Positions 4,265-30,878 of a stretch of DNA of 64,000 nucleotides are shown one piece after another. The notes beneath the pieces were generated by a model. That model made no database searches, was not told the origin of the DNA, and worked only from the letters and a program-made list of their open reading frames with translations. The stretch lies in NCBI GenBank assembly GCA_035937795.1, contig DASZHO010000149.1, forward strand, positions 5,185-69,184. The letters run 5' to 3'. Position 1 is the stretch's first letter, and every line of letters begins with the position of its first letter. The stretch comes from Vicinamibacterales bacterium (GTDB taxonomy: Bacteria > Acidobacteriota > Vicinamibacteria > Vicinamibacterales > JAMQPK01). The translations under genes were made by a program, and so were the position numbers.

Positions 4265-6075
4265 TCGACCTCGGATGTCGCGAGAAAGCCGCCGGACTGA
4301 TGCGCCCAGAGCGACGCGTAGAGACCGCCCCGGGTGAGCAGCGCGTCGTGAGAACCCTCCTCGATGATGCCGCCGCGCTCGAGCACGACCAGCCGATCCA
4401 TCCTTTTCACGGTCGAAAGGCGATGCGCGATCACGATCGCGGTGCGCCTCGCCATGAGCGTCCAGAGCGCCTCCTGAATGAGCCCCTCGCTCTCGGAATC
4501 CAGCGAGCTGGTGGCTTCGTCGAGGATCAGGATCGGCGCATCCTTCAAGATCGCGCGCGCGATCGCCACGCGTTGCCGCTGGCCGCCGGACAGTTTGATG
4601 CCCCGTTCGCCCACGAGCGTCTGGTAGCCGCCCGGCAGCGCCTCGATGAATTCGGCGGCATGCGCCAGACCAGCCGCGCGGCGCACCTCCGCGTCGGTTG
4701 CGCCCGGCCGCCCCACACGGATGTTGTCGGCGATCGTGCGGTGAAACATCGACGGATCCTGCGGCACGTATCCAATGGCGCGGCGCAGCGAGGCCTGCGG
4801 CACGCGGTCGATCGGTTGGCCGCCCACGAGGATCTCGCCGCGCTCGACGTCCACGAAACGCAGCAGGAGCCGCGTGAGCGTGGTCTTTCCGCCACCGGAC
4901 CGTCCGACAAGGCCCACCCTTGAATCGGTCTCGATCCGCAGCGAGAAGTTTTCGAAGAGCAGCGGCTGCGCGGGCGAGTAGCGGAAGCTGACGTTGCGCA
5001 GCTCCACCGCGAAGTCGCCGGGCGCGAATGGCTGGCTCTCGACCGGGTCGACGACCGACGGCGGGTCGAGCAGCAATTCGGCGAACTGCGCGGCGTCCGT
5101 CAGCGCCCCTTCGAGGGTGCGGTAGATGTGGTTGAACTCCCACATGACGCGGGTGATCGCCGCGAAGTAGCTGAACGTGATGAAGACCGTCTCGAGACTC
5201 GCTCCCGTGCCGCGGCTGGTCGCGAGTGCCACGACGAGTCCCAGCGTGTTCGTCAGCACGTACATCGGCGACGTCACCAGGTCCACGCGCAGATTCTGGT
5301 AGTCCCACGACCGGAGCGTCTTGGCGCCGTAATCGCCGACGTTTTGCGCGTGGATGCGCGCCTCTTCCGGCTCACGCGCGAATGCGCGCACCGTTTCGGC
5401 GTTGCCGATCGAGTCGGCCACGTGCCCGGCGAGCCTGTTCGACGACTCCTCGCGTATGTCGACCAGTCGCTGGCGGCGGCGGATGAACGGAAACACCATC
5501 GTGAATGTCAGCGAGAGCATCGCCGCCAGGCTCACGATGAGCAGCGGCGAATATCTCCAGAGCACGACCCCGACGAACAGGAGCGGGAGGGCATTCGCGA
5601 CGACCTGGAACGACATCACGTCGAACACGTCCTCGAACCGCCGCGCGTAGCCGAGCGCCCGCTTGGTGAGCGATCCGGCGTAGTTGTCGTGGAAGAACGA
5701 GAGGTCCTTCGCCAGGAGCTCATCCATCGCTTCGATGTAAAGCGCTTCCATCCCGTGGATCTCGGCGCGGGACATGAAGGCGATGGCGATCCGCCAGAGA
5801 ACCTCGCCTGCCAGCCACAGGCCTGAGAACGTGAGCACGTAGGGGGCGAGCTGGGTGGCCGAGAGCCGGTCGTTCCTGGCGAACGCGCCCAGCAGCCGCG
5901 CGATGACGAGCGGCGGCGCATAGAACACCAGCACGTTGCCGATGCCCGGCAACAGCAGCGCGGGCAGCGTGACGGCAGGCCGGCTGCGAATCTGCCGGGC
6001 GTAGCGGCGCACCACCAGCCGGAGCGCCTCGGCCAGGCGTCGAGAATCGCGGGCGTCGTGGGATGTAGCAGTCAT
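4246..6075 (-). CDS. ABC exporter, fused transmembrane and ATP-binding domains (MsbA-like type I exporter)
   Basis: ORF 4246..6075, 609 aa. N-terminal six-helix membrane domain, then Walker [10 protein letters not shown], signature LSGGQRQR and Walker [13 protein letters not shown]. Confidence 0.9.
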
Positions 6076-6086
6076 GAAGCGGTCCC

Positions 6087-6126
6087 AAAAAACAAAAGGG
6101 CCATCACCGCTGGTGGGTGATGGCCC
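6087..6126 (-). terminator. Intrinsic (rho-independent) terminator on the minus strand, 11 nt upstream of the ABC exporter start codon
   Basis: The minus strand reads GGGCCATCACC-CACCAGC-GGTGATGGCCC followed by TTTTGTTTTTT. That is a perfect 11-bp GC-rich stem (6126..6116 / 6108..6098), a 7-nt loop and a T-tract (6097..6087). No minus-strand gene lies upstream of it to terminate. Confidence 0.65.
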
Positions 6127-6174
6127 TTAAGAAGTCGGCTTCTTGTTTCTGGCTACATCACCTGGGGGCGGCCC

Positions 6175-6192
6175 TGTGAACGGTGTGAACGG
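6175..6192. repeat. 9-bp perfect tandem duplication (tgtgaacgg x2)
   Basis: Read directly: 6175..6183 and 6184..6192 are identical. Confidence 0.9.
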
Positions 6193-6306
6193 CGACGTCG
6201 GCGCTCGCGCCGTGGAAATACGGCTGAATCGAGCCAGAGCGCGCCCAGGTGATCATCATCATCAGAAGGTATTAGGAAACCACAGCGCAGCCGATCTGTC
6301 AACACC

Positions 6307-6330
6307 CGCGTGCTATTCCGCGTGCTATTC
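6307..6330. repeat. 12-bp perfect tandem duplication (cgcgtgctattc x2) just upstream of the 929-aa gene
   Basis: Read directly: 6307..6318 and 6319..6330 are identical. It ends 10 nt before the GGAGG Shine-Dalgarno of the gene starting at 6354. Confidence 0.9.
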
Positions 6331-6353
6331 TTCCCTCCACGGAGGCAATTGAA

Positions 6354-9143
6354 ATGGCAACGAGGACCCTGGTCGGCCTGGCGGCGATGGGCGTGGTCTG
6401 TTCGGTGATGGTGGGCCAAGCGCGGGTGACGCGCATCGAGATCGTGAAGGTTGAATCGCCGGCGCCTCCGCCCGCCAACGCGGGTTCCACCGTGTTGCCT
6501 CCCTACGAGCGCATCAGCGGCAAATTCTACGGCGAGCTCGATCCGAAAGACCCGAAAAACGCGCTCATCACCGACATTCAATTTGCCCCGCGTAACGCGC
6601 GCGGCAACGTCGAGTACGTCGGCACCTTTTCGCTGATGAAGCCCATCGACATGTCGAAGGCGAGCGGCGTGTTGATGTACTCGGTCGTGAATCGCGGCGG
6701 CGGCACGGCGGCAGCCAGCGCCGAAGGGCACGTCTCTCTCGTCAGCGGATGGCAGGGCGATGTCGTGCCGACCGCGGCGAATCAAACCATTCAGGTGCCC
6801 CGCGCAAAAAACCCCGACGGCAGCAGCATCACCGGTCCGCTCGTGATTCGCTGGATCGGGCAGAGCGGCAGCACCGCCGCGCTGATCATCCCTCGCGCCA
6901 CGCCGTCGCCTTATCCGCCGGCGACGCTGGACACGGCGAAGGCCACGCTCGTCTCCGCAACCTCTGAGAGCGGCACGGGAGTGAAGAGCGGGCAAGTGAA
7001 GATTGCGAGCAGCGACTGGGCCTTTGCCGACTGTTCGAAGACGCCATTTCCAGGCACGCCGGACCCGGCTCATGTCTGCTTGAAGAACGGATTCAACCCG
7101 GCGCTGCTCTACGAGCTGCAATACACGGTGAAGGATCCGCTCGTGCTTGGTATCGGTTTTGCGGCGACGCGGGACGTGAATGCCTTTTTCCGGTATGAGA
7201 AACAGGACGACGCGGGAACCCCGAACCCGGTGGCTGGAAACATTCGCTGGGCGGTGTCCGAAGGCAGCTCGCAATCGGGAACGTTTCTTCGCGCGTTCAT
7301 CCGCCTCGGCTTCAATCAGGACGAGCGCAACCGCATCGTCTGGGAGGGCAGCAACCCGCACATCGCCGCGCGCGTGCTGGACATGAACCGCCGGTTCGCC
7401 GAGCCTGGTGGAACCATCTCGCTGTACGAGCTCGGGCACGAAGCGCCGGTGTGGTGGGAAGACTGGGACGATACCGCGCGCGGAAGGGGAAAGGCCGGCC
7501 TGCTCGATCGCTGCCGCGCCACCAATACCTGCCCGAAGATCATGGAGACGTTCGGCAGCAGCGAGATCTACGGCCTCCGCGCCTCGTTCATGCTGGTAGG
7601 AACCACCGCGAAGGCCGACATCCCGCTGCCTGAAAATGTGCGCCGCTATTATTTTCCGGGCGTCACCCACGGCGGCGGCCCGGGCGGCTTCAACCAGACG
7701 ACGGCTGCAATCACCAGCGTGTTCGGCGGCTGCGACCTCACGATGAATCCCGCACCCTCGGCGCCGATGCGAACGGCGTTGATGAAGTCGCTCGTCGAGT
7801 GGGTGACCAGGGGTACGCCCATGCCGCCGAGTAAATATCCGACGATCGCCGACGGCACGCTGGTGCCGGACACGAGCGCGGCGATGGGCTTCCCGAATAT
7901 CCCGGGGCGGCCGTCTCCCGACGGGATCGTGTATCCGTTGCTCGACTACGAGCTGGGACCGCACTTCAACTACAAAGATGCGTCGGGTTTCCTCGTGAAA
8001 GTACCCACCATCAAGCAGGTGTTGCCGCAGCTGGTCGTGAAGGTCGACGCGGACGGCAACGAAGTGGCCGGGGTGAAATCACCGCTTCAGATGGCGCCGC
8101 TTGGGACCTACACGGGCTGGAACGTGGTGTCGTCTGGCCCGTTCAAGGGGCAGATGTGCCTCACGGCGTCGCCGGTCGGTGGCTTCATTCCGTTCGCGCG
8201 CTCCAGGGCGGAGCGCGTGGCCAGCGGCGATCCGCGCCTCTCGCTCGAGGAGCGGTACAAGACGCACGATGGATATGTGCAGGCGGTCAGCGCCGCGGCG
8301 AACAAGCTCGTGAAGGATGGCTATCTGCGCCAGTCGGATGCTGATGCCATGATTGCGCAGGCACAGGCAAGCAGCATTCTTCGGCAGGAGAGCCAGACAT
8401 CTGCATCCGCAAAAATGCCGGCGCAGGGTGTCGGCGTCGCGAACATGATCGATCACATTCATCTCGGAGCGCCCGATCCGGTCAAGGCCGTCGAGTGGTA
8501 TCAGAAATATTTCGGCGGCGAGAAGATGGCCGAGGCGACCGACCGGCTGCTGTACGGGCAGGTGCGCGTGATTTTTTCGAAGAACGCGGCGCCGAAGCCC
8601 AGCGAGGGTGGCGTACTCGATATCATCGGGTTCTCGGTGCCCGATCTCGATGCGGCGGTGAAGAAAATGCAGTCCGACGGGGTGACGGTTGTGATGCCGG
8701 TCATGACCATGGACGGCATGAAAGTAGCGCAGGTAACCGATCCGTGGGGAACCCTGATCGAGGTGGTCCAGGATCCGTCGAAGCTCGGCTTGCATCACCT
8801 CTGTCTGCTCTCGCCGGATCCGGCGGCGTCGCTCGCCTGGTTTGCCGATAAATTCGGCGGGAAAGTCGTGAAATACAAGGGCAAGGTCGACGCGATCAAC
8901 TACGGCGGCGTGTGGTTCCTGGGAAAGCAAGGCGACTCGGTGCCCAGCCAGGGGCACGCGATCGATCACATGGGTATGCGCCCGATCAATCTTGAAAACG
9001 TCGTCGCGGGGCTGAAGGCGAAGAACGTGAAGATGCTCACCGAGCCGCGGCCGTTGACCCTCTCGGACGGCACCACCGTGCATCTGGCGTTTGCCGAAGG
9101 GCCCGCCAGCGTCCGGATTGAGCTCGTCGAACGTCCGAATTGA
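6354..9143 (+). CDS. Secreted 929-aa fusion protein: large uncharacterised N-terminal domain (alpha/beta-hydrolase-domain-like family) plus two C-terminal VOC/glyoxalase-type domains
   Basis: ORF 6354..9143 with GGAGG 9 nt upstream and a signal-like N-terminus. The N-terminal ~670 aa (YERISGKFYGELDPKDPKNALITDIQFAP...) resemble proteins usually annotated as alpha/beta hydrolase domain-containing. The last ~250 aa carry two glyoxalase/bleomycin-resistance/dioxygenase-like repeats (IDHIHLGAPDPVKAVEWYQKYFGG and LHHLCLLSPDPAASLAWFADKFGG). Confidence 0.8.
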   Translation: MATRTLVGLAAMGVVCSVMVGQARVTRIEIVKVESPAPPPANAGSTVLPPYERISGKFYGELDPKDPKNALITDIQFAPRNARGNVEYVGTFSLMKPIDMSKASGVLMYSVVNRGGGTAAASAEGHVSLVSGWQGDVVPTAANQTIQVPRAKNPDGSSITGPLVIRWIGQSGSTAALIIPRATPSPYPPATLDTAKATLVSATSESGTGVKSGQVKIASSDWAFADCSKTPFPGTPDPAHVCLKNGFNPALLYELQYTVKDPLVLGIGFAATRDVNAFFRYEKQDDAGTPNPVAGNIRWAVSEGSSQSGTFLRAFIRLGFNQDERNRIVWEGSNPHIAARVLDMNRRFAEPGGTISLYELGHEAPVWWEDWDDTARGRGKAGLLDRCRATNTCPKIMETFGSSEIYGLRASFMLVGTTAKADIPLPENVRRYYFPGVTHGGGPGGFNQTTAAITSVFGGCDLTMNPAPSAPMRTALMKSLVEWVTRGTPMPPSKYPTIADGTLVPDTSAAMGFPNIPGRPSPDGIVYPLLDYELGPHFNYKDASGFLVKVPTIKQVLPQLVVKVDADGNEVAGVKSPLQMAPLGTYTGWNVVSSGPFKGQMCLTASPVGGFIPFARSRAERVASGDPRLSLEERYKTHDGYVQAVSAAANKLVKDGYLRQSDADAMIAQAQASSILRQESQTSASAKMPAQGVGVANMIDHIHLGAPDPVKAVEWYQKYFGGEKMAEATDRLLYGQVRVIFSKNAAPKPSEGGVLDIIGFSVPDLDAAVKKMQSDGVTVVMPVMTMDGMKVAQVTDPWGTLIEVVQDPSKLGLHHLCLLSPDPAASLAWFADKFGGKVVKYKGKVDAINYGGVWFLGKQGDSVPSQGHAIDHMGMRPINLENVVAGLKAKNVKMLTEPRPLTLSDGTTVHLAFAEGPASVRIELVERPN

Positions 9144-24736: not shown

Positions 24737-25812
24737 AAAAACCGCGCGTAGTCCTCGTCGCCGCCCTGCTCTTCGCCTCGTCTCTGGCAGCGCCTCCGGT
24801 CATCTCCCGGCTGCGCGGCGCCGAGTCGCTGCCTGATTCGATTTCGGATCAGGAATTCTGGAAGATGACGGCAGACTTCTCCGAGCCAGGCGGCTTTTTC
24901 CGGTCCGAAAACCTGCTATCCAACGAGGCCGGCTTTCCGTACATCCTGACGGATCTCGCCAAGGCCGCTTCGCCCGCGCGCGTCTACATGGGCGTGGGAC
25001 CCGAGCAGAATTTCGAGTACATCGCCGTGCTCAAGCCGAAAATGGCGTTTATCGTCGACATCCGGCGCGGCAATCTCAATCTCCAGCTGATGTACAAGGC
25101 GCTGTTTGATCTGTCATCCGATCGCGCCGAGTTTGTGTCCAGGCTCTTCTCGATACGGCGCCCGGCCACACTGAACGCCCTGTCGACGCCCGAGCAGATG
25201 TTCACGGCGTTCTCGAACATACAGAAAAGCGAGACGCTCTATAACGCCAACCTCAAAGCCATCGACGCCGACCTCATCGAGAAGCACCATTTCGCGGTCA
25301 CCCCCGAAGACCTCGACGCGATTGCCGGAGTGTACGAAGCGTTCTATACATTCGGACCCGACATTCGCTATTCATCGGGTCAGGGCGGAGGGTTCGGCGG
25401 CGGATTCAATCAGCCGAGCTACGCCGAACTGATGACGGCCGTCGACCTCGATGGAAAATTCCGGAGCTATCTGGCCAGCGAGCAGAATTTTCAGGTCCTC
25501 AAAGTTCTGGAAGCGAAGAATCTGCTCGTGCCGGTCGTGGGAAATTTCGGAGGGCCGAAAGCCATTCGTGCCGTCGGCAAATATGTGAAGGACCACGGCA
25601 CCGTCGTTTCGGCGTTTTATCTGTCGAACGTCGAGATGTATCTGTATCAGCAGGATTTGTGGACCGCATTCTGCCGGAACGTCGCCGCGCTTCCCCTCGA
25701 CGATACGAGCAGGTTCATCCGTTCCTCTCGAGGCGGCACCTCCTATGGCCGCGGGTTTGGCTTGAACCTTTCGCTCGGCGAAATGGCCACAGAGGTCAAA
25801 GACTGCCGCTGA
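24733..25812 (+). CDS. Secreted hypothetical protein, GTGA-coupled to the spermidine-synthase-like gene
   Basis: ORF 24733..25812. The GTG overlaps the upstream TGA. Signal peptide present. The segment VYMGVGPEQNFEYIAVLKPKMAFIVDI looks Rossmann-like. Family not recognised. Confidence 0.7.
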   Translation: MKKPRVVLVAALLFASSLAAPPVISRLRGAESLPDSISDQEFWKMTADFSEPGGFFRSENLLSNEAGFPYILTDLAKAASPARVYMGVGPEQNFEYIAVLKPKMAFIVDIRRGNLNLQLMYKALFDLSSDRAEFVSRLFSIRRPATLNALSTPEQMFTAFSNIQKSETLYNANLKAIDADLIEKHHFAVTPEDLDAIAGVYEAFYTFGPDIRYSSGQGGGFGGGFNQPSYAELMTAVDLDGKFRSYLASEQNFQVLKVLEAKNLLVPVVGNFGGPKAIRAVGKYVKDHGTVVSAFYLSNVEMYLYQQDLWTAFCRNVAALPLDDTSRFIRSSRGGTSYGRGFGLNLSLGEMATEVKDCR

Positions 25813-25910
25813 GGCCGTCGGCCGTCCCCGGCACCCGCCCAGGCGCACGCATCCGCCCAGGCGTATTTGTTGCTTGGAATCTCCTCTAAGTGCCCCCCAG
25901 ATGGGGTTTT

Positions 25911-25934
25911 AGACCGCAGGAGAGACCGCAGGAG
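25911..25934. repeat. 12-bp perfect tandem duplication that doubles a Shine-Dalgarno sequence
   Basis: agaccgcaggag (25911..25922) and agaccgcaggag (25923..25934), followed by atacac and then ATG 25941. Confidence 0.9.
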
Positions 25935-25940
25935 ATACAC

Positions 25941-26523
25941 ATGGCCACGATTGCGATATCGAAATGGACCAGAATCCCGACCCAGTCCCCCCAGGCAAGA
26001 GACGGCCAGGCCCGCGACGACCGCCAGTCTGTTGTTGTGCGGAGGCCGGGCGAAATGGGGTATCCCGACAACCCCTATTCCCGCGAGTTTTGTCGACGGG
26101 TCGAGCGTGAAGCGTCGCTCGGTGAGCGCGCCAGCACCGCCGCCCTGCTGCTGGGGCTGGCCGCCGTTGGCGGGTTCTTCCTCTACAACAGCCTGAACCA
26201 CCTCAAAACGCCGAGATGATGAGCGGCTATGCGGCCGGAAAAGGGGTGCCGGTCCCCAAGGCCGCCGTTTTGGGGTCTGGAGCCCTCATGGTCTTGGGAG
26301 GCCTGAGCCTGCTGCTGGGCGCCAAACCCAGGTCGGGACGGCCCTGATTGCCGGGTTTTTGGCGGCCGTAAGCCCAAAAATGCACGATTTTTGGAATCAA
26401 ACCGACCCGCAGGCGAAAATGACCGAACAGGTTAACTTCCTGAAGAAGATGGCGCTGATCGGCGGGGCCGCGCTGGCCGCCGCCGTCCCCGAGCCCTGGC
26501 CTCTTAGCGTGGGAAACCGATAA
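25941..26523 (+). pseudogene. DoxX-family membrane protein gene interrupted by two single-base frameshifts
   Basis: Three successive frames together give a DoxX-like protein. Frame 0 runs to the TGA at 26217..26219 (...TAALLLGLAAVGGFFLYNSLNHLKTP). Frame 2 covers 26216..26347 (MMSGYAAGKGVPVPKAAVLGSGALMVLGGLSLLLGAKPR). Frame 1 runs to the TAA at 26521..26523 (GTALIAGFLAAVSPKMHDFWNQTDPQAKMTEQVNFLKKMALIGGAALAAAV). Each junction (near 26213 and 26332) behaves as a 1-nt deletion. Confidence 0.5.
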
Positions 26524-26541
26524 TACCTGTAGGACGTCTAA
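26513..26541 (+). promoter_or_regulatory. ECF-type promoter copy 3: GAAACCG-N16-GTCTAA upstream of the zinc-ribbon ORF
   Basis: gGAAACCG ATAATACCTGTAGGAC GTCTAAGG. Architecture identical to the two copies at the sigma locus. The ATG lies 16 nt after GTCTAA, with AGGAG in between. Confidence 0.55.
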
Positions 26542-26557
26542 GGGAATAGGAGCATTC

Positions 26558-26716
26558 ATGCCAAGACGAACCAGCGCAGCTGTCGGGGTGGTCTGTCCCA
26601 GGTGCGGAATGCTCGCCGCGCGCATAATCGGCCGATCCGAGAGTCTGCCCATCATTTACCTTCAGTGCGAGGACTGCGGCAGAACCTCCGTGGCGCCGAG
26701 CGGCGAGCAGGCCTAA
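26558..26716 (+). CDS. 52-aa zinc-ribbon protein (CxxC-N25-CxxC), absent from the ORF track
   Basis: ATG 26558 lies 5 nt after AGGAG (26548..26552). Translation: MPRRTSAAVGVVCPRCGMLAARIIGRSESLPIIYLQCEDCGRTSVAPSGEQA. Stop TAA at 26714..26716. It has its own ECF-type promoter. Confidence 0.6.
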   Translation: MPRRTSAAVGVVCPRCGMLAARIIGRSESLPIIYLQCEDCGRTSVAPSGEQA

Positions 26717-27090
26717 TCGAGCAGTTCCGTCCGAGTCGATACCAGAACCCAACCCAGCCAACCCGCCAGCGCCGCGAGCACCAGCGGCGCCGGCGGAATC
26801 GCCCCGGCAATCGACCCCAACGCCCCTCCGGCACGTCGAAGTGTGTCGATGCCGGCTTCTAACCAGTCGCCCAGACGCGCCGCGTTCCACAGCAGCGCCA
26901 GGCCCAGAACGATAAGCACCGTTGCAGCGTCGTCCAGTTCGGCCAGCCACTTGGTACGGCCGTCCGCGGGAGACGCCTGGCCTTCCATCGCGCGGCGCAT
27001 GACGCGCGACGTGAAGTCGGGTGGCGCCCGCAACGCCGTGCGGCGCTTCAGCGCGTCTTCAAGCCGCTCATCCCAACCGGCAGGATTCAC
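26713..27090 (-). CDS. Putative membrane-anchored anti-sigma factor
   Basis: Lies immediately downstream of the ECF sigma gene. 125 aa with a cytoplasmic N-terminus (APPDFTSRVMRRAM, a motif common in anti-sigma factors) and two hydrophobic helices. GTG start at 27090. Confidence 0.6.
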   Translation of the reverse strand: MNPAGWDERLEDALKRRTALRAPPDFTSRVMRRAMEGQASPADGRTKWLAELDDAATVLIVLGLALLWNAARLGDWLEAGIDTLRRAGGALGSIAGAIPPAPLVLAALAGWLGWVLVSTRTELLD

Positions 27091-27124
27091 CGCGCCTCCA
27101 TGATATTCACCGCGCCTCCATGAT
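27085..27124. repeat. 20-bp perfect tandem duplication at the sigma / anti-sigma junction
   Basis: attcaccgcgcctccatgat (27085..27104) is repeated exactly at 27105..27124. Each copy contains the GTGA start/stop overlap and a GGAGG on the minus strand. Confidence 0.95.
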
Positions 27125-27655
27125 GAATGTTCGAAGTTTTTGCTTGGCGCGGCGAAGGTGCGTTTTCACCGTGCCGATCGGCATCTCGAAGATTTCCGCG
27201 AGCTCCTCGTAGCGCCTGTCGCCGAAATAATGGGCCGAGATGAGCAGGCGCCATCGATCCGGCAGCTGGGCGATGGCCTTTTCCAGCTCATCGCGCAACT
27301 CCAAATCGGTGAACGCCCGATCGACGACGGCGGGCTGATAGAGAGGCCGGTCGTCGGCGTCGCGCTCGTCAAGTGACCTCGCCTGCGGGTCCCTCGATCG
27401 CTCCTCGCAGCAGGCGTTCCTGACGATGCGATAAATCCACGTCGATAGCTTTGCGTCGCCCCGAAACGAAGGAAGGCCGCGATGGATCTTCAGGAAGACT
27501 TCCTGAGCCAGGTCGTCCACCCGCGAGCGATCCAGTACGACCTGCGAAATTACGCCGAAGACCAGGTTCTTGTAGCAGTCGACGAGCGTCTCGAAGGCCC
27601 TCTGGTCGCCAGCCCGGCACCGGGCGATGAGCTCCGTTTCCGAGGCATACTCCAT
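27107..27655 (-). CDS. ECF (sigma-70 family, group IV) RNA polymerase sigma factor
   Basis: ORF 27107..27709; the likely ATG is at 27655 (MEYASETELIARCRAGDQRAFETLV). Region 2 (DDLAQEVFLKIHRGLPSF) and region 4 (YEELAEIFEMPIGTVKTHLRRAKQKL) are recognisable. Confidence 0.9.
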   Translation of the reverse strand: MEYASETELIARCRAGDQRAFETLVDCYKNLVFGVISQVVLDRSRVDDLAQEVFLKIHRGLPSFRGDAKLSTWIYRIVRNACCEERSRDPQARSLDERDADDRPLYQPAVVDRAFTDLELRDELEKAIAQLPDRWRLLISAHYFGDRRYEELAEIFEMPIGTVKTHLRRAKQKLRTFIMEAR

Positions 27656-27666
27656 CCGGCACCTGA

Positions 27667-27695
27667 TTAGACAGGAGACTTCATGCCTTTGTTTC
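27667..27695 (-). promoter_or_regulatory. ECF-type promoter copy 1: GAAACAA-N16-GTCTAA upstream of the sigma gene (probable autoregulation)
   Basis: The minus strand reads cGAAACAA AGGCATGAAGTCTCCT GTCTAATC, then AGGTGCCGG and ATG 27655. Only 11 nt separate GTCTAA from the start codon. Confidence 0.6.
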
Positions 27696-27697
27696 GT

Positions 27698-27735
27698 CCC
27701 AAAGCCCAAAGCCCAAGCCGAGAGCCCAGAGCCCC
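27698..27735. repeat. Heptanucleotide tandem array (AAAGCCC/AGAGCCC, about 5 units) between the two divergent ECF promoters
   Basis: ccc aaagccc aaagccc aagccg agagccc agagccc c, read directly. Confidence 0.85.
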
Positions 27736-27736
27736 T

Positions 27737-27765
27737 GAAACAATCCTGTCTCGGGCGCAGTCTAA
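27737..27765 (+). promoter_or_regulatory. ECF-type promoter copy 2: GAAACAA-N16-GTCTAA upstream of the DUF6249-like gene
   Basis: tGAAACAA TCCTGTCTCGGGCGCA GTCTAATC. Same 7-mer, same spacing and same 8-mer as copy 1. The ATG lies 76 nt downstream. Confidence 0.6.
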
Positions 27766-27791
27766 TCTCTCCATGACGCTATTCTTGGGGT

Positions 27792-27840
27792 GCAGCTAAC
27801 TTGGGCAACTAACTTGGGCAACTAACTTGGGGAGCAGCTA
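27792..27840. repeat. 13-nt x3 tandem repeat (gcaRctaacttgg) in the predicted 5' leader of the DUF6249-like gene
   Basis: gcagctaacttgg gcaactaacttgg gcaactaacttgg, then ggagcagcta. The array ends 1 nt before ATG 27842 and supplies its GGGGAG Shine-Dalgarno. Confidence 0.85.
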
Positions 27841-27841
27841 C

Positions 27842-28243
27842 ATGGATGGCCTCGCGGAAATACTCGTCCCAATCGCCGCGATTCTCGGAGGACTCGGGTT
27901 TGCGGGCTACGCCATGAGCATCAAAGTGCGCATGCGCGAGATGCATCATCGCGAGCGCTTGGCCATGATCGAAAAGGGGATGACGCCGCCCCCCCTCCCG
28001 ACGCGGTCCGACCGCGATTTTGGTAGCCGCCACCGGCGCGGATCCGGGATCATCTGCATCTTTGCCGGCTTGGGGCTCGCCTTTCTGCTCGGCTATGGGA
28101 ACAACCAGGGGATGCAGGGGTATGCCATCGGCGCCTTTGTGGCGCTGATTGGCGTCGCGATACTCATCAACAGCATCCTGGACAGTCGTCCGCTCAGGGA
28201 CTCCAACCCCCCACGCTCCGATTCCAGCCCGCACCCGATGTAA
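27842..28243 (+). CDS. Small membrane protein, DUF6249-like (typical ECF-sigma neighbour)
   Basis: ORF 27827..28243; ATG at 27842 (MDGLAEILVPIAAILGGLGFAGYAM). Has a TM helix, a charged REMHHRERLAMIEKG segment and two more TM helices. Confidence 0.75.
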   Translation: MDGLAEILVPIAAILGGLGFAGYAMSIKVRMREMHHRERLAMIEKGMTPPPLPTRSDRDFGSRHRRGSGIICIFAGLGLAFLLGYGNNQGMQGYAIGAFVALIGVAILINSILDSRPLRDSNPPRSDSSPHPM

Positions 28244-28250
28244 AGCCTTT

Positions 28251-28256
28251 TATAAT
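28251..28256 (+). promoter_or_regulatory. Perfect TATAAT hexamer 13 nt upstream of the hydrolase-PDZ start codon (candidate -10 box)
   Basis: ccttttTATAATcggccagagtggtATG. No convincing -35 element. Confidence 0.3.
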
Positions 28257-28269
28257 CGGCCAGAGTGGT

Positions 28270-29862
28270 ATGAAACGGATTCCCCTGGCCGGCGTCGCGC
28301 TGGCGTGTTTGGCCGCAGCCCGGATGGGCGCCTCTCCCGCGCCCGATGCCTCGGCAATCGATCGCGCCTTCCAGGAGTTCCTGGGCGCGCCGGACCAGGC
28401 GGCGGCAGCCAGGCGCGCCGACGCCGTCGTGAAAAGCGGCGTGCCGTTCGACGAAGCTGTCGCCCGGCTGCGGCGCGGCCGTGACTACTCGACGAGCGTG
28501 GCACGCGGCACCGAGCACGGCCGTCATCGCACATTCGACGGCGTCGAACACGACTACACGTTCGTTGTCCCCGCCAACTACGATCCGTCGCGGCAATACC
28601 GGCTCCGCGTGCAGCTGCACGGCGGCGTGAGCAGACCGGAGCAGCCCGACCCCAACCGCCTGGGCATTGGCCGTCTTCCCGGCACGGTCGAAGAGATCTC
28701 CGTATTTCCTTCGGCGTGGGCTGATTCGCTGTGGTGGCAGGCATCGCAGGTCGACAACCTCGCGAAGATCCTCGACAAGCTGAAACGTACGTACAACGTC
28801 GATGAGAACCGCGTGTACCTCACCGGCATATCCGATGGCGGCACGGGCGCCTATTTCATGGCCTTCCGCGACACGACGCCGTGGGCGAGCTTTCTGCCGC
28901 TCAACGGCAACATGCTGGTGCTGGCGTCGCCCGAGGTGGGGGCCGACGGCGAGATGTTTCCGGGGAACGCCGTCAACAAGCCATTTTTCGTCGTGAACGG
29001 AGGGCTCGATCGGCTCTATCCGGCGCATATCGTGCAGCCCTACGTTGAGCACCTCGAGAAACTCGGCGCCGACGTGGTGTTTCACGTGCAGCCGGACGCC
29101 GATCACAACACCGACTGGTGGCCCGAAGAGCGCGCCGCGTATGAGGCATTTGTCGACGGCCATCCGCGCGATCCGTTGCCGGACAAACTGTCGTGGGAGA
29201 CCGAGCGCACCGATCGCTACAACCGTGCCCATTGGCTCGTGATCGATCGGCTTGGCGACGTCGCCGGCCAGGCGAAGCTTGCCGACAGCAATCTGCTCCT
29301 CGGGCGCGTCGAATATGACTTCGGGTTGCGGATCAGCTCGAACATAGACGGCGGGCGGCGCGTGCTCGACGTGGCGCCGAACTCGAACGCATATCGGATC
29401 GGCCTGCGCCCCGGTGATCTGATTCTCGACGTGGAAGGGCGGACGGTGCAGACTGCCCGCGATATTGTTGAACCGATGCAGCAATGGGCCATCGGCCGAA
29501 CGGTGCGGGTGACCGTCGAGCGTGCTGGCCGGAGCGTGTCGCTGGAAGGGCCGTTTCAGCCGGATCAGTTCGAGGCGCCGGGAGGTCCCATCTTCCCCCG
29601 CGGGAAACCGTCGGGGCGTATCGACCTGGCGCGCCACGCGAACGTGGTCGAAGCATCGACGCGCGGCGTCCGCGCGTTCACGCTTCTGCTGTCGCCATCG
29701 AAATTCGATTTGACCAAGCCTGTTCGCGTCGTCGCCAACGGGCGAACCGTGTTTGAGGGCCCGGTCGCGCCGAGCGTGGCGACGCTTCTGAAATGGGCCG
29801 CGCGCGATAACGATCGAACGATGCTGTTCGGCGCCGAATTGACGGTAGACCTGACAAAATAG
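28270..29862 (+). CDS. Secreted alpha/beta-hydrolase (esterase/peptidase-like) with C-terminal PDZ domain
   Basis: Signal peptide present. Nucleophile elbow GISDGG and catalytic-type DADH are present. PDZ-like segment: YRIGLRPGDLILDVEGRTVQTARDIV. Confidence 0.8.
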   Translation: MKRIPLAGVALACLAAARMGASPAPDASAIDRAFQEFLGAPDQAAAARRADAVVKSGVPFDEAVARLRRGRDYSTSVARGTEHGRHRTFDGVEHDYTFVVPANYDPSRQYRLRVQLHGGVSRPEQPDPNRLGIGRLPGTVEEISVFPSAWADSLWWQASQVDNLAKILDKLKRTYNVDENRVYLTGISDGGTGAYFMAFRDTTPWASFLPLNGNMLVLASPEVGADGEMFPGNAVNKPFFVVNGGLDRLYPAHIVQPYVEHLEKLGADVVFHVQPDADHNTDWWPEERAAYEAFVDGHPRDPLPDKLSWETERTDRYNRAHWLVIDRLGDVAGQAKLADSNLLLGRVEYDFGLRISSNIDGGRRVLDVAPNSNAYRIGLRPGDLILDVEGRTVQTARDIVEPMQQWAIGRTVRVTVERAGRSVSLEGPFQPDQFEAPGGPIFPRGKPSGRIDLARHANVVEASTRGVRAFTLLLSPSKFDLTKPVRVVANGRTVFEGPVAPSVATLLKWAARDNDRTMLFGAELTVDLTK

Positions 29863-29887
29863 GAACGTGGGACCGGGTCATTAAGTG

Positions 29888-30481
29888 ATGGAATATCGGA
29901 TCACGCAATATCCGCTCGAACAGGGCGCGCTCGAGATTCAGTACATCGAGGAATTCTTCGGCGAGTATCAGCGGCGCAAGACCGTTGCGGAGATTGTGGG
30001 CCGCCTCGAGCACCGCGATCATCTGATTCTGATGGCGACGGCGCCGCTCCCAGACGATCCCGGCAGCGTCGTGCCGGTGTCCTATAAGGTGGCGCACGAG
30101 ATCCGTCTGCACGAGGACAACCCGAAGCTGCAAGACCTGGTGGCGCGGCTGCGCGAGCACGTCAAGTTCGAAGGAAGACGGATCCTCTATACCTGGATTG
30201 GCGGCACGCGGCGTGATTGGCGCGGCCAGGGGCACTTTCGCGCGTTGACCGAACAGCAGGAAGCATGGGCGCTGGAACAGGGCTTCGACGAGATCATCGT
30301 CAAAACCAAGAACAAGTTCTACGAGATGCGCGGCACGCTCGACCATCTCCGCTTCGACGTCGTGAAATACGAGCCGCACGCCGACAACCGCGAGTCGAAA
30401 GTCTATCTGAGCAAGAAATTGAATCCGGACGTGCTGGACACGCACCGGATGATGCGTACCGTCGTGACCATGGAATCGTAA
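29888..30481 (+). CDS. GNAT family N-acetyltransferase
   Basis: ORF 29885..30481 (GTG); ATG at 29888. Acetyl-CoA-binding-type motif RRDWRGQGHFRAL. Confidence 0.7.
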   Translation: MEYRITQYPLEQGALEIQYIEEFFGEYQRRKTVAEIVGRLEHRDHLILMATAPLPDDPGSVVPVSYKVAHEIRLHEDNPKLQDLVARLREHVKFEGRRILYTWIGGTRRDWRGQGHFRALTEQQEAWALEQGFDEIIVKTKNKFYEMRGTLDHLRFDVVKYEPHADNRESKVYLSKKLNPDVLDTHRMMRTVVTMES

Positions 30482-30491
30482 CAGGCTGCGA

Positions 30492-30878
30492 TCATGGGCG
30501 GGAATTGAGCGTAATGATGAGTTTCTGCAGTCCCGCCACCACTTGGCTGTACTTCTGCTCGAAATCCCGGTACACTTCGGGGCGTAGCAAACCCAATCTG
30601 CTGGAGAGACCCAGCAGGTAAAGCACCTCCGCAGCAGAGCCTGCTGCGACGTTCACGAAATGAAGATAGTCGCGCATTGTTCGACGAATACAGCCTTCGA
30701 CGAGGTTGGTCGGTACCGAGATGGCGGCTCGCCGGATCTGATCGCACAATCCGAAACGTTCTTCCGAAGGAAACGCGGACGTTTTTGCGTACACCTCAAT
30801 GACAAGTTCATCGGCCAGCCACCTTCCGGAGGCAAAAACCAATCCGTACCGTGACACCGTCTCTGGCCCAGAGCCCAA
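30492..30878 (-). CDS. Four-helix-bundle protein (23S rRNA intervening-sequence protein family)
   Basis: Family hallmarks: FPSEERFGLCDQIRRAAISVPTNLVEG and AAGSAAEVLYLLGLSSRLGLL. The listed start is a TTG inside the heptamer array; GTG 30857 or TTG 30842 are alternatives. Confidence 0.8.
   Translation of the reverse strand: MGSGPETVSRYGLVFASGRWLADELVIEVYAKTSAFPSEERFGLCDQIRRAAISVPTNLVEGCIRRTMRDYLHFVNVAAGSAAEVLYLLGLSSRLGLLRPEVYRDFEQKYSQVVAGLQKLIITLNSRP

Follow-up and report, generated by a model that had tools for sequence, protein, structure and literature searches.

A bipartite ECF-type promoter motif upstream of three genes at an RpoE-like sigma factor locus of a Vicinamibacterales bacterium

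Genes and predicted promoter sites at the sigma factor locus

The stretch analysed here, 64 kb of DNA from a Vicinamibacterales bacterium of the phylum Acidobacteriota (hereafter the window), contains a gene for an extracytoplasmic function (ECF) sigma factor, together with a divergently oriented gene for a DUF6249 membrane protein and a small gene for a zinc-ribbon protein. Each of the three is preceded by the bipartite motif GAAAC-N18-GTCTAA, which an earlier note, made from the sequence alone, had read as one ECF promoter wiring a local mini-regulon. The genes and sites are arranged as follows:

26513..26541, plus strand: predicted ECF-type promoter of the zinc-ribbon gene, GAAACCG-N16-GTCTAA (exact match; 21 bits; class consensus gGAAACC[G/A]-N15-CGTCTAA)
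26558..26716, plus strand: gene for a 52-residue Cys4 zinc-ribbon protein (CPRC...CEDC), with an AGGAG Shine-Dalgarno sequence upstream
26713..27090, minus strand: gene for a 125-residue anti-sigma-like membrane protein without an HxxxCxxC segment, predicted to be co-transcribed with the sigma gene
27107..27655, minus strand: gene for an ECF sigma factor of 182 residues, RpoE/AlgU/SigW-like (Pfam, NCBIfam and PDB matches)
27667..27695, minus strand: predicted autoregulatory ECF-type promoter of the sigma operon, GAAACAA-N16-GTCTAA (exact match; 25.5 bits)
27737..27765, plus strand: predicted ECF-type promoter of the DUF6249 gene, GAAACAA-N16-GTCTAA (exact match; 30 bits)
27842..28243, plus strand: gene for the DUF6249 membrane protein (Pfam PF19762), divergent partner of the sigma gene

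The DUF6249 gene on one strand and the sigma and anti-sigma-like genes on the other form a cassette, which is located between the zinc-ribbon gene and a gene for a hydrolase-PDZ protein.

The sigma factor displays a Sigma70_r2 domain (55 bits) and a Sigma70_r4_2 domain (50 bits), both above the Pfam cut-off, and with regions 2 and 4 only in 182 residues it corresponds to the group IV (ECF) sigma factors of about 180–200 residues. The model TIGR02937 (sigma70-ECF) is matched with 98.4 bits at a cut-off of 42.9, the closest solved structures in the PDB are AlgU, SigW and RpoE, and 1699 homologues are found at E≤1e-30. According to these matches the protein is a bona fide ECF sigma factor of the RpoE/AlgU/SigW kind. 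The equivalog cut-offs of the NCBIfam models tested (TIGR02939, TIGR02948 and PRK09641) are not reached, with scores of 101 vs 236 for RpoE_Sigma70, 100.6 vs 243 for SigW_bacill and 112 vs 209 for PRK09641. By sequence the protein is related to both RpoE and SigW and is an equivalog of neither. No second sigma gene or paralogue was found in the 64-kb window.

A search of both strands of the window for GAAAC-N18-GTCTAA yields exactly three matches (26513–26541 and 27737–27765 on the plus strand, 27695–27667 on the minus strand), which agree in 11 of 11 specified bases. None of 100 dinucleotide-preserving shuffles contained a match (expectation for the window about 0), which bears out the earlier judgement that the arrangement is unlikely to arise by chance, and tolerance of one mismatch adds no further site (0.26 expected). 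The hexamer GTCTAA occurs four times on the two strands, compared with 7.1 ± 2.4 copies expected, and is thus rarer than the dozen or so copies guessed before; three of the four copies are accompanied by GAAAC. The distance from GTCTAA to the start codon is 11 nt for the sigma gene (ATG at 27655), 76 nt for the DUF6249 gene (ATG at 27842) and 16 nt for the zinc-ribbon gene (ATG at 26558). These distances, as well as the common architecture of three equally spaced sites, had been noticed by eye and are confirmed on the sequence. Only the coordinates of the zinc-ribbon site require a small correction: the motif does begin at 26513 on the plus strand, but the additional g written in front of it in the earlier alignment is position 26512, not 26513. 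With a weight matrix derived from 20 orthologous sites, the three window sites reach 21–30 bits, whereas the next best position of the 64 kb scores 10.7 bits.

A generic scan of positions 25800–30600 revealed no sigma-70-type promoter, and terminator-like sites were no commoner in this region than in shuffled sequences. The only match of an Rfam scan of positions 25500–28500 was to flpD, below the threshold (21.6 vs 40 bits).

Conservation of the sites and of the sigma–DUF6249 cassette

Related DNA was gathered by a genome-collection scan with the sigma protein as query, by a metagenome scan with the zinc-ribbon protein as query, and by protein searches and eleven contig look-ups; the loci and contigs compared with the window are designated by L-numbers. 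The divergent promoter pair is kept in 17 of 17 other contigs holding the sigma–DUF6249 intergenic region (those named are L001–L005, L097–L103, L107, L110, L111 and L113), and 23 of 23 other contigs encoding the 52-residue protein carry the zinc-ribbon promoter in front of its gene (L001, L081–L086, L097–L101, L103 and L105–L114). Position, orientation and spacing are conserved for all three site classes, while the spacer sequences diverge. Column by column, only the −35 and −10 blocks carry much information, and the length of the spacer is invariant. A matrix scan of 337 kb of GC-rich related DNA (40 loci) gave 64 matches of at least 12 bits, 61 of which are situated at the three gene classes, about 38 of them outside the training set of the matrix. 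Of the checks proposed in the earlier note, the matrix scan of related DNA and the comparison of orthologous loci came out in its favour, with only three of the 64 matches outside the three gene classes and with conservation of all three sites across the related contigs.

ECF sigma factors usually autoregulate their own expression, with their regulators and targets encoded next to them, a habit on which promoter prediction in the field is based (PMC7826278). The presence of the target motif upstream of the sigma gene, in the window as well as in the 17 other contigs, argues at the level of sequence for the autoregulation that the earlier note had assumed.

The intergenic DNA surrounding the sites is rich in simple tandem repeats, and the three copies might be regarded as a chance coincidence or as pieces of a dispersed repeat. 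However, only the two short blocks, and neither the spacer nor the flanks, are common to the sites, which in addition are conserved in more than 20 contigs with diverged surroundings. This block-limited conservation, in combination with the shuffle statistics given above, refutes such an origin, and we regard its probability as negligible.

A second possibility is that the bipartite repeat represents an operator for a DNA-binding regulator, in which case a dimer would bind the back-to-back pair as an inverted repeat. The sites of the sigma and DUF6249 genes are indeed inverted relative to each other and often only 5–20 bp apart. Nevertheless, the members of the pair are separated by anything from about 5 to 50 bp, whereas the two blocks of a site always keep the same spacing. 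The zinc-ribbon site stands alone and has one orientation, and every copy is directed at a gene, at a promoter-like distance from the start codon or the Shine-Dalgarno sequence. Moreover, the blocks fit the −35 and −10 consensus of sigma-E, so that an operator appears very improbable. In E. coli, sigma-E promoters defined by experiment are characterized by a −35 element GGAACTTTT and a −10 element (T/C)GGTCAAAA, separated by a spacer of 15–19 nt with a preference for 16 nt, and by a discriminator of 5/6 nt (PMC1312014). Written according to this convention, the motif becomes GAAACAA-N17-TCTAA, with −35 and −10 blocks of the sigma-E type and a spacer within 15–19 nt. Due to this match in block layout, the motif can be classified as a sigma-E-type promoter.

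In all window-type loci the ATG of the sigma gene is located 11–13 nt after GTCTAA. A conserved Shine-Dalgarno sequence is absent, and GCCGG directly before the ATG recurs in many loci. Given the 5/6-nt discriminator of sigma-E, this distance would leave a leader of about 5 nt. A near-leaderless sigma mRNA is thus plausible, and the conserved gap between −10 and ATG supports the very short leader predicted in the earlier note. In a second type of cassette, represented by L002, the −10 element is [T/C]TCTAA, and in L002 and L003 the sigma gene starts about 55–60 nt downstream of it. The sequence TATAAT occurs only three times in the window (28251, 46808 and 59241), each time just upstream of a start codon. 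As TATAAT boxes are found 5–13 nt before start codons, a leader that is short or missing seems to be the norm in this lineage, and housekeeping-type promoters may commonly give rise to leaderless mRNAs here.

The earlier note had described the protein encoded downstream of the sigma gene as its anti-sigma factor. A conserved open reading frame for a membrane protein is indeed present, but the zinc-finger segment of its relatives is absent. The 125-residue protein, for which no Pfam match was obtained, aligns to the C-terminal two thirds of the zf-HC2-type partner proteins of L002 and L102 and lacks their zinc-binding segment (about 25 residues, HxxxCxxC). The L002 and L102 partners resemble the zinc-binding anti-sigma (ZAS, zf-HC2) proteins in possessing HxxxCxxC and a weak zf-HC2 match (E 0.005–0.01, below the Pfam cut-off). 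Since the window-type partner is devoid of the whole zinc-binding segment, it is not a ZAS protein. One further feature is found at the junction between the two genes of the operon:

27085..27124, no strand assigned: perfect 20-bp tandem duplication (ATTCACCGCGCCTCCATGAT x2; Tandem Repeats Finder: 2.0 copies, 100% match; family D2 of find_repeats)

This duplication spans the stop of the sigma gene and the start of the anti-sigma-like gene. It splits apart two genes that in L097 share a 4-nt stop/start overlap and creates a 7-codon mini-open reading frame between them. In L001, a metagenome-assembled genome, the sigma reading frame (6001–6852) is continuous with that of the anti-sigma-like membrane segment and encodes a 283-residue fusion. 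The junction contains two extra bases compared with the window, which may reflect either a genuine fusion of sigma and anti-sigma or a fault of the assembly.

On the other side of the sigma gene and beyond the DUF6249 gene, the following features were found:

27698..27734, no strand assigned: simple 7/13-bp repeats between the two back-to-back −35 elements (tandem-repeat search)
27792..27831, plus strand: 13-bp x 3 tandem repeat (GCAACTAACTTGG) in the 76-nt DUF6249 leader (tandem-repeat search)
28251..28256, plus strand: TATAAT box lying 13 nt before the start codon of the hydrolase-PDZ gene, likely a housekeeping-type promoter apart from the ECF units
28270..29862, plus strand: gene for an alpha/beta-hydrolase (S9/DLH-like) with PDZ (Pfam PDZ_2, PDZ_6 and Peptidase_S9)

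The DUF6249 protein matches PF19762 with 43.7 bits (cut-off 33), and its gene is divergent from the sigma gene in every cassette locus that reaches it. With a profile of the orthologues, DUF6249-like reading frames were also detected in L014 (5606–5986) and L020 (5602–5985), where they immediately precede distant ECF sigma genes in the same orientation. The sigma factors of these loci, which belong to other Acidobacteriota, are only 33–34% identical to the window sigma, and DUF6249 may quite generally accompany one ECF clade. The gap between the back-to-back −35 elements measures 41 bp in the window compared with about 5–20 bp in the other loci, having been widened by the repeats, and in orthologous DUF6249 loci the Shine-Dalgarno sequence lies nearer to the −10 element than in the window. 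Tandem repeats with units of 7–13 bp are also seen at comparable intergenic places in L083 (4030–4150) and L001 (7780–7890 and 6880–6990).

The earlier note had tentatively added the hydrolase-PDZ gene to the sigma regulon. While the DUF6249 gene is supported as a target, the hydrolase-PDZ gene has a conserved TATAAT box of its own: the box is found in nine of ten loci (window, L001, L081, L083, L084, L098, L099, L101 and L103), 5–13 nt from the start codon and mostly as TATAAT-5/6 nt-GTG. Since this element is interposed between the hydrolase-PDZ and DUF6249 genes, the hydrolase-PDZ gene is unsupported as a component required for the ECF unit and is a neighbour, reached at most by read-through.

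The zinc-ribbon gene and its surroundings

Among relatives the zinc-ribbon protein is 88–98% identical and thereby far more conserved than the sigma factor (57–80%). Compared with L081, 31 codons of its gene carry synonymous changes only and one a non-synonymous change. This pattern indicates strong purifying selection on the small reading frame, which by this evidence is a real gene. An AlphaFold model of the 52-residue protein shows a three-stranded zinc ribbon (pLDDT 76). Pfam and NCBIfam returned only generic zinc-ribbon matches below threshold, and in a Foldseek search with the model no PDB entry matched with an E below 0.1, the highest-ranking ones being the zinc ribbons of Elf1, eIF2-beta and Rpp21. 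The idea that the protein might be the lost zinc-binding half of the anti-sigma factor was rejected, as it also occurs without the cassette and its modelled fold is a beta zinc ribbon and not the helical HxxxCxxC domain.

Distant homologues of 46 residues (L088–L096) are preceded by an element AGACC-N17/18-ATC[T/A/C]AA, in which, together with AGGAG, only the −10-like part is clearly retained. No related sigma gene was found adjoining these homologues.

The zinc-ribbon and anti-sigma-like genes are convergent, and their stops overlap by 4 nt in the window (26713–26716), in L097 (1040–1043) and in L098 (1918–1921). These three loci represent the subclade of the window, in which the terminator after the zinc-ribbon gene is absent. 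A strong intrinsic terminator ends the gene in L001, L099–L101 and L103, and in more distant syntenic loci a gap of 73–139 bp with a strong hairpin and T-run terminator separates the convergent genes. With the terminator lost and the stops overlapping, and if the same sigma factor drives both units, transcription of the zinc-ribbon gene would run antisense into the sigma operon and add a self-limiting loop, which is speculative. In view of its high conservation, of a promoter that outlives the cassette (see below) and of the terminator-less convergent overlap in three loci, the zinc-ribbon protein might by analogy be a conserved effector or feedback regulator of the sigma subfamily, such as a small protein that binds zinc and associates with the sigma factor or RNA polymerase, a role that we consider quite doubtful. 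CsfB/Gin, an anti-sigma factor of 48 residues in B. subtilis, is a parallel in kind only, and the Gin family was not encountered among the Pfam matches of the zinc-ribbon protein up to E 1.

Immediately before the zinc-ribbon promoter lies a gene broken into three reading frames (25890–26219, 26216–26347 and 26359–26523), the last fragment overlapping the −35 box of the zinc-ribbon promoter. Homologous pieces are found in a single frame in L083 (3194–3751), which indicates that the window copy contains two frameshifts; it is either a pseudogene or affected by sequence errors. Two of its fragments were without a match in Pfam. In L001 a reading frame with the core MSPNISLLNRVRSEFIEMPGLRLRIDQAQRLW... 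(7480–7788, plus strand) lies upstream of the zinc-ribbon gene on the opposite strand, and similar DNA is present in L084 at about 4330–4520 on the minus strand. Genes of 63–67 residues are called at that position, likewise on the opposite strand, in L100, L101, L103, L105, L106, L108, L112 and L114, matched by position only, whereas in the window this place is taken by the frameshifted gene.

Loss of the cassette, reading of the locus and known systems

In seven loci (L081, L083, L084, L105, L106, L109 and L114) the hydrolase-PDZ gene directly follows the zinc-ribbon gene and the cassette is absent. A comparison of L106 (1818–2060) and L109 (484–725) with L107 (948–2360) reveals a clean deletion of 1193 bp. 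The sigma gene is gone together with the divergent promoter pair, the anti-sigma-like gene has lost its 5' part and the DUF6249 gene most of its length, and only short stretches from either end of the cassette are left. L106, L107 and L109 have identical zinc-ribbon promoters, and L106 and L107 originate from the same metagenome. An insertion of the cassette between the zinc-ribbon and hydrolase-PDZ genes was considered as well, but for L106 and L109 the end remnants speak for the opposite event, a deletion. In L081, L083, L084, L105 and L114 no cassette remnants were found.

The motif with its specificity and conservation, the nature of the sigma factor and the reality of the small gene are direct results of the computation. 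From these we infer that the three sites are active promoters read by the window sigma, and where transcription would start. The sigma holoenzyme would recognise a −35 element GAAAC(A/C) and a −10 element (G)TCTAA at a fixed spacing. It would drive its own operon, amounting to positive autoregulation with an mRNA start about 5 nt before the ATG, the divergent DUF6249 gene, and the zinc-ribbon gene, whose mRNA would begin about at the AGGAG ribosome-binding site. The zinc-ribbon promoter would belong to a sigma regulon on which a sigma factor of the same specificity can act in trans, and would not be tied to the neighbouring gene. Taken together, we consider it likely that one ECF-type promoter is used three times, for an autoregulated RpoE-like sigma unit, a DUF6249 unit and a zinc-ribbon unit, with service in trans as a possibility. 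Comparative sequence evidence supports the core of the earlier proposal, a single ECF promoter in three copies with two targets nearby; of the local mini-regulon the three shared promoters stand, whereas the attribute local is not essential for the zinc-ribbon gene.

Several observations weigh against such a shared use. The zinc-ribbon promoter is fully conserved in the seven loci without a cassette, and the −35 element of the distant zinc-ribbon homologues is AGACC, not GAAAC. The consensus of the sigma and DUF6249 sites, tGAAACAA-N15-n[G/T/C]TCTAAt, differs systematically from that of the zinc-ribbon sites, [G/A/C][A/G]AACC[G/A]-N15-CGTCTAA, a difference which could reflect tuning for different paralogues. 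In addition, the putative anti-sigma factor is without a recognisable anti-sigma domain, and by the E. coli convention the spacer of 17 nt is one above the preferred 16.

Since the promoter is kept without the cassette, the neighbouring sigma gene is not needed to maintain it, and a sigma factor of the same specificity encoded elsewhere must be able to read it. A candidate for this source in trans is the L002-type cassette at the BrkB/M48-ABC locus, which carries the same motif on its own promoters and encodes a zinc-finger anti-sigma factor, and whose sigma factors are nearly identical to those of the window type in region 2 and region 4.2. These properties, together with the retained promoter in the cassette-less loci including the deletion variant L106/L109 and the differing flanks of the two site classes, could also be explained if the zinc-ribbon promoter were read mainly by an unlinked sigma factor of the same subfamily, for example of the L002 type, leaving only the divergent pair to the local sigma. 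However, with recognition regions as similar as these, the local sigma should read the zinc-ribbon site too, and the three window sites are identical in every specified base. Both cassette types occur together in none of the five species-representative metagenome-assembled genomes among the matches listed, which is weak evidence in the same direction. A zinc-ribbon promoter served mainly from elsewhere is therefore unlikely, though by no means far-fetched, and shared use of one promoter type by all three units is preferred.

If the promoters are confirmed, the uncultured and poorly studied soil Vicinamibacterales (Acidobacteriota) gain a defined ECF sigma factor with its recognition motif and a small core regulon consisting of the sigma factor, the DUF6249 membrane protein and the 52-residue zinc-ribbon protein, whose gene is sometimes overlooked by gene callers. 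Two proteins without assigned function would thereby be tied to an envelope-stress-type regulator, and complete genomes can be searched with the matrix. An autoregulated ECF promoter whose targets lie nearby is a textbook case, so the understanding of ECF regulation is unchanged; the arrangement is a well-supported fresh example of known ECF wiring.

Comparison with known systems reveals partial likeness to several of them. At the clsB locus of Bacteroides a DUF6249 protein is encoded beside a sigma factor and a DUF5056 protein, and PG1662 of P. gingivalis is a DUF6249 protein (PMC12094164). A DUF5056 match to one anti-sigma-like protein of the present loci is weak and non-significant (E 0.2). 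These Bacteroidota neighbourhoods belong to another phylum, the papers on them yielded no promoter information, and the likeness described here is one of gene neighbourhood.

The best match to a solved structure is AlgU of P. aeruginosa (6in7_B, E 4e-25). Promoters of AlgU are of the type GAACTT-N16/17-TCtgA. Unlike the AlgU-MucA system, the present locus encodes no anti-sigma domain of the MucA/RseA type, and both the neighbouring genes and the phylum differ. After AlgU, sigma-W of B. subtilis (sigW-rsiW) is the second-best named solved relative (5wuq, E 1e-23), and SigW is likewise the second-best NCBIfam match of the window sigma. The sigW operon is autoregulated, and the sigma-W consensus TGAAAC-N16-CGTA shares the TGAAAC block at −35; the −10 element found here, however, is (G)TCTAA and not CGTA, and the content of the regulons is unrelated.

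As in rpoE-rseABC of E. coli, an ECF sigma factor is combined with autoregulation of its promoter and with a membrane protein encoded on the same transcript, the latter two predicted here from sequence. The promoters are laid out in almost the same way, with GGAACTT at −35 in E. coli versus GAAACAA here and GGTCAAA at −10 versus (C/G)GTCTAA. In contrast to RpoE itself, the window sigma reaches only about 83–101 bits in comparisons with RpoE, and its partner, lacking a Pfam match, is not RseA-like. The present locus further differs from that of E. coli by a sigma ATG 11–13 nt after the −10 element, which predicts a near-leaderless mRNA, and by a conserved divergent partner, the DUF6249 gene.

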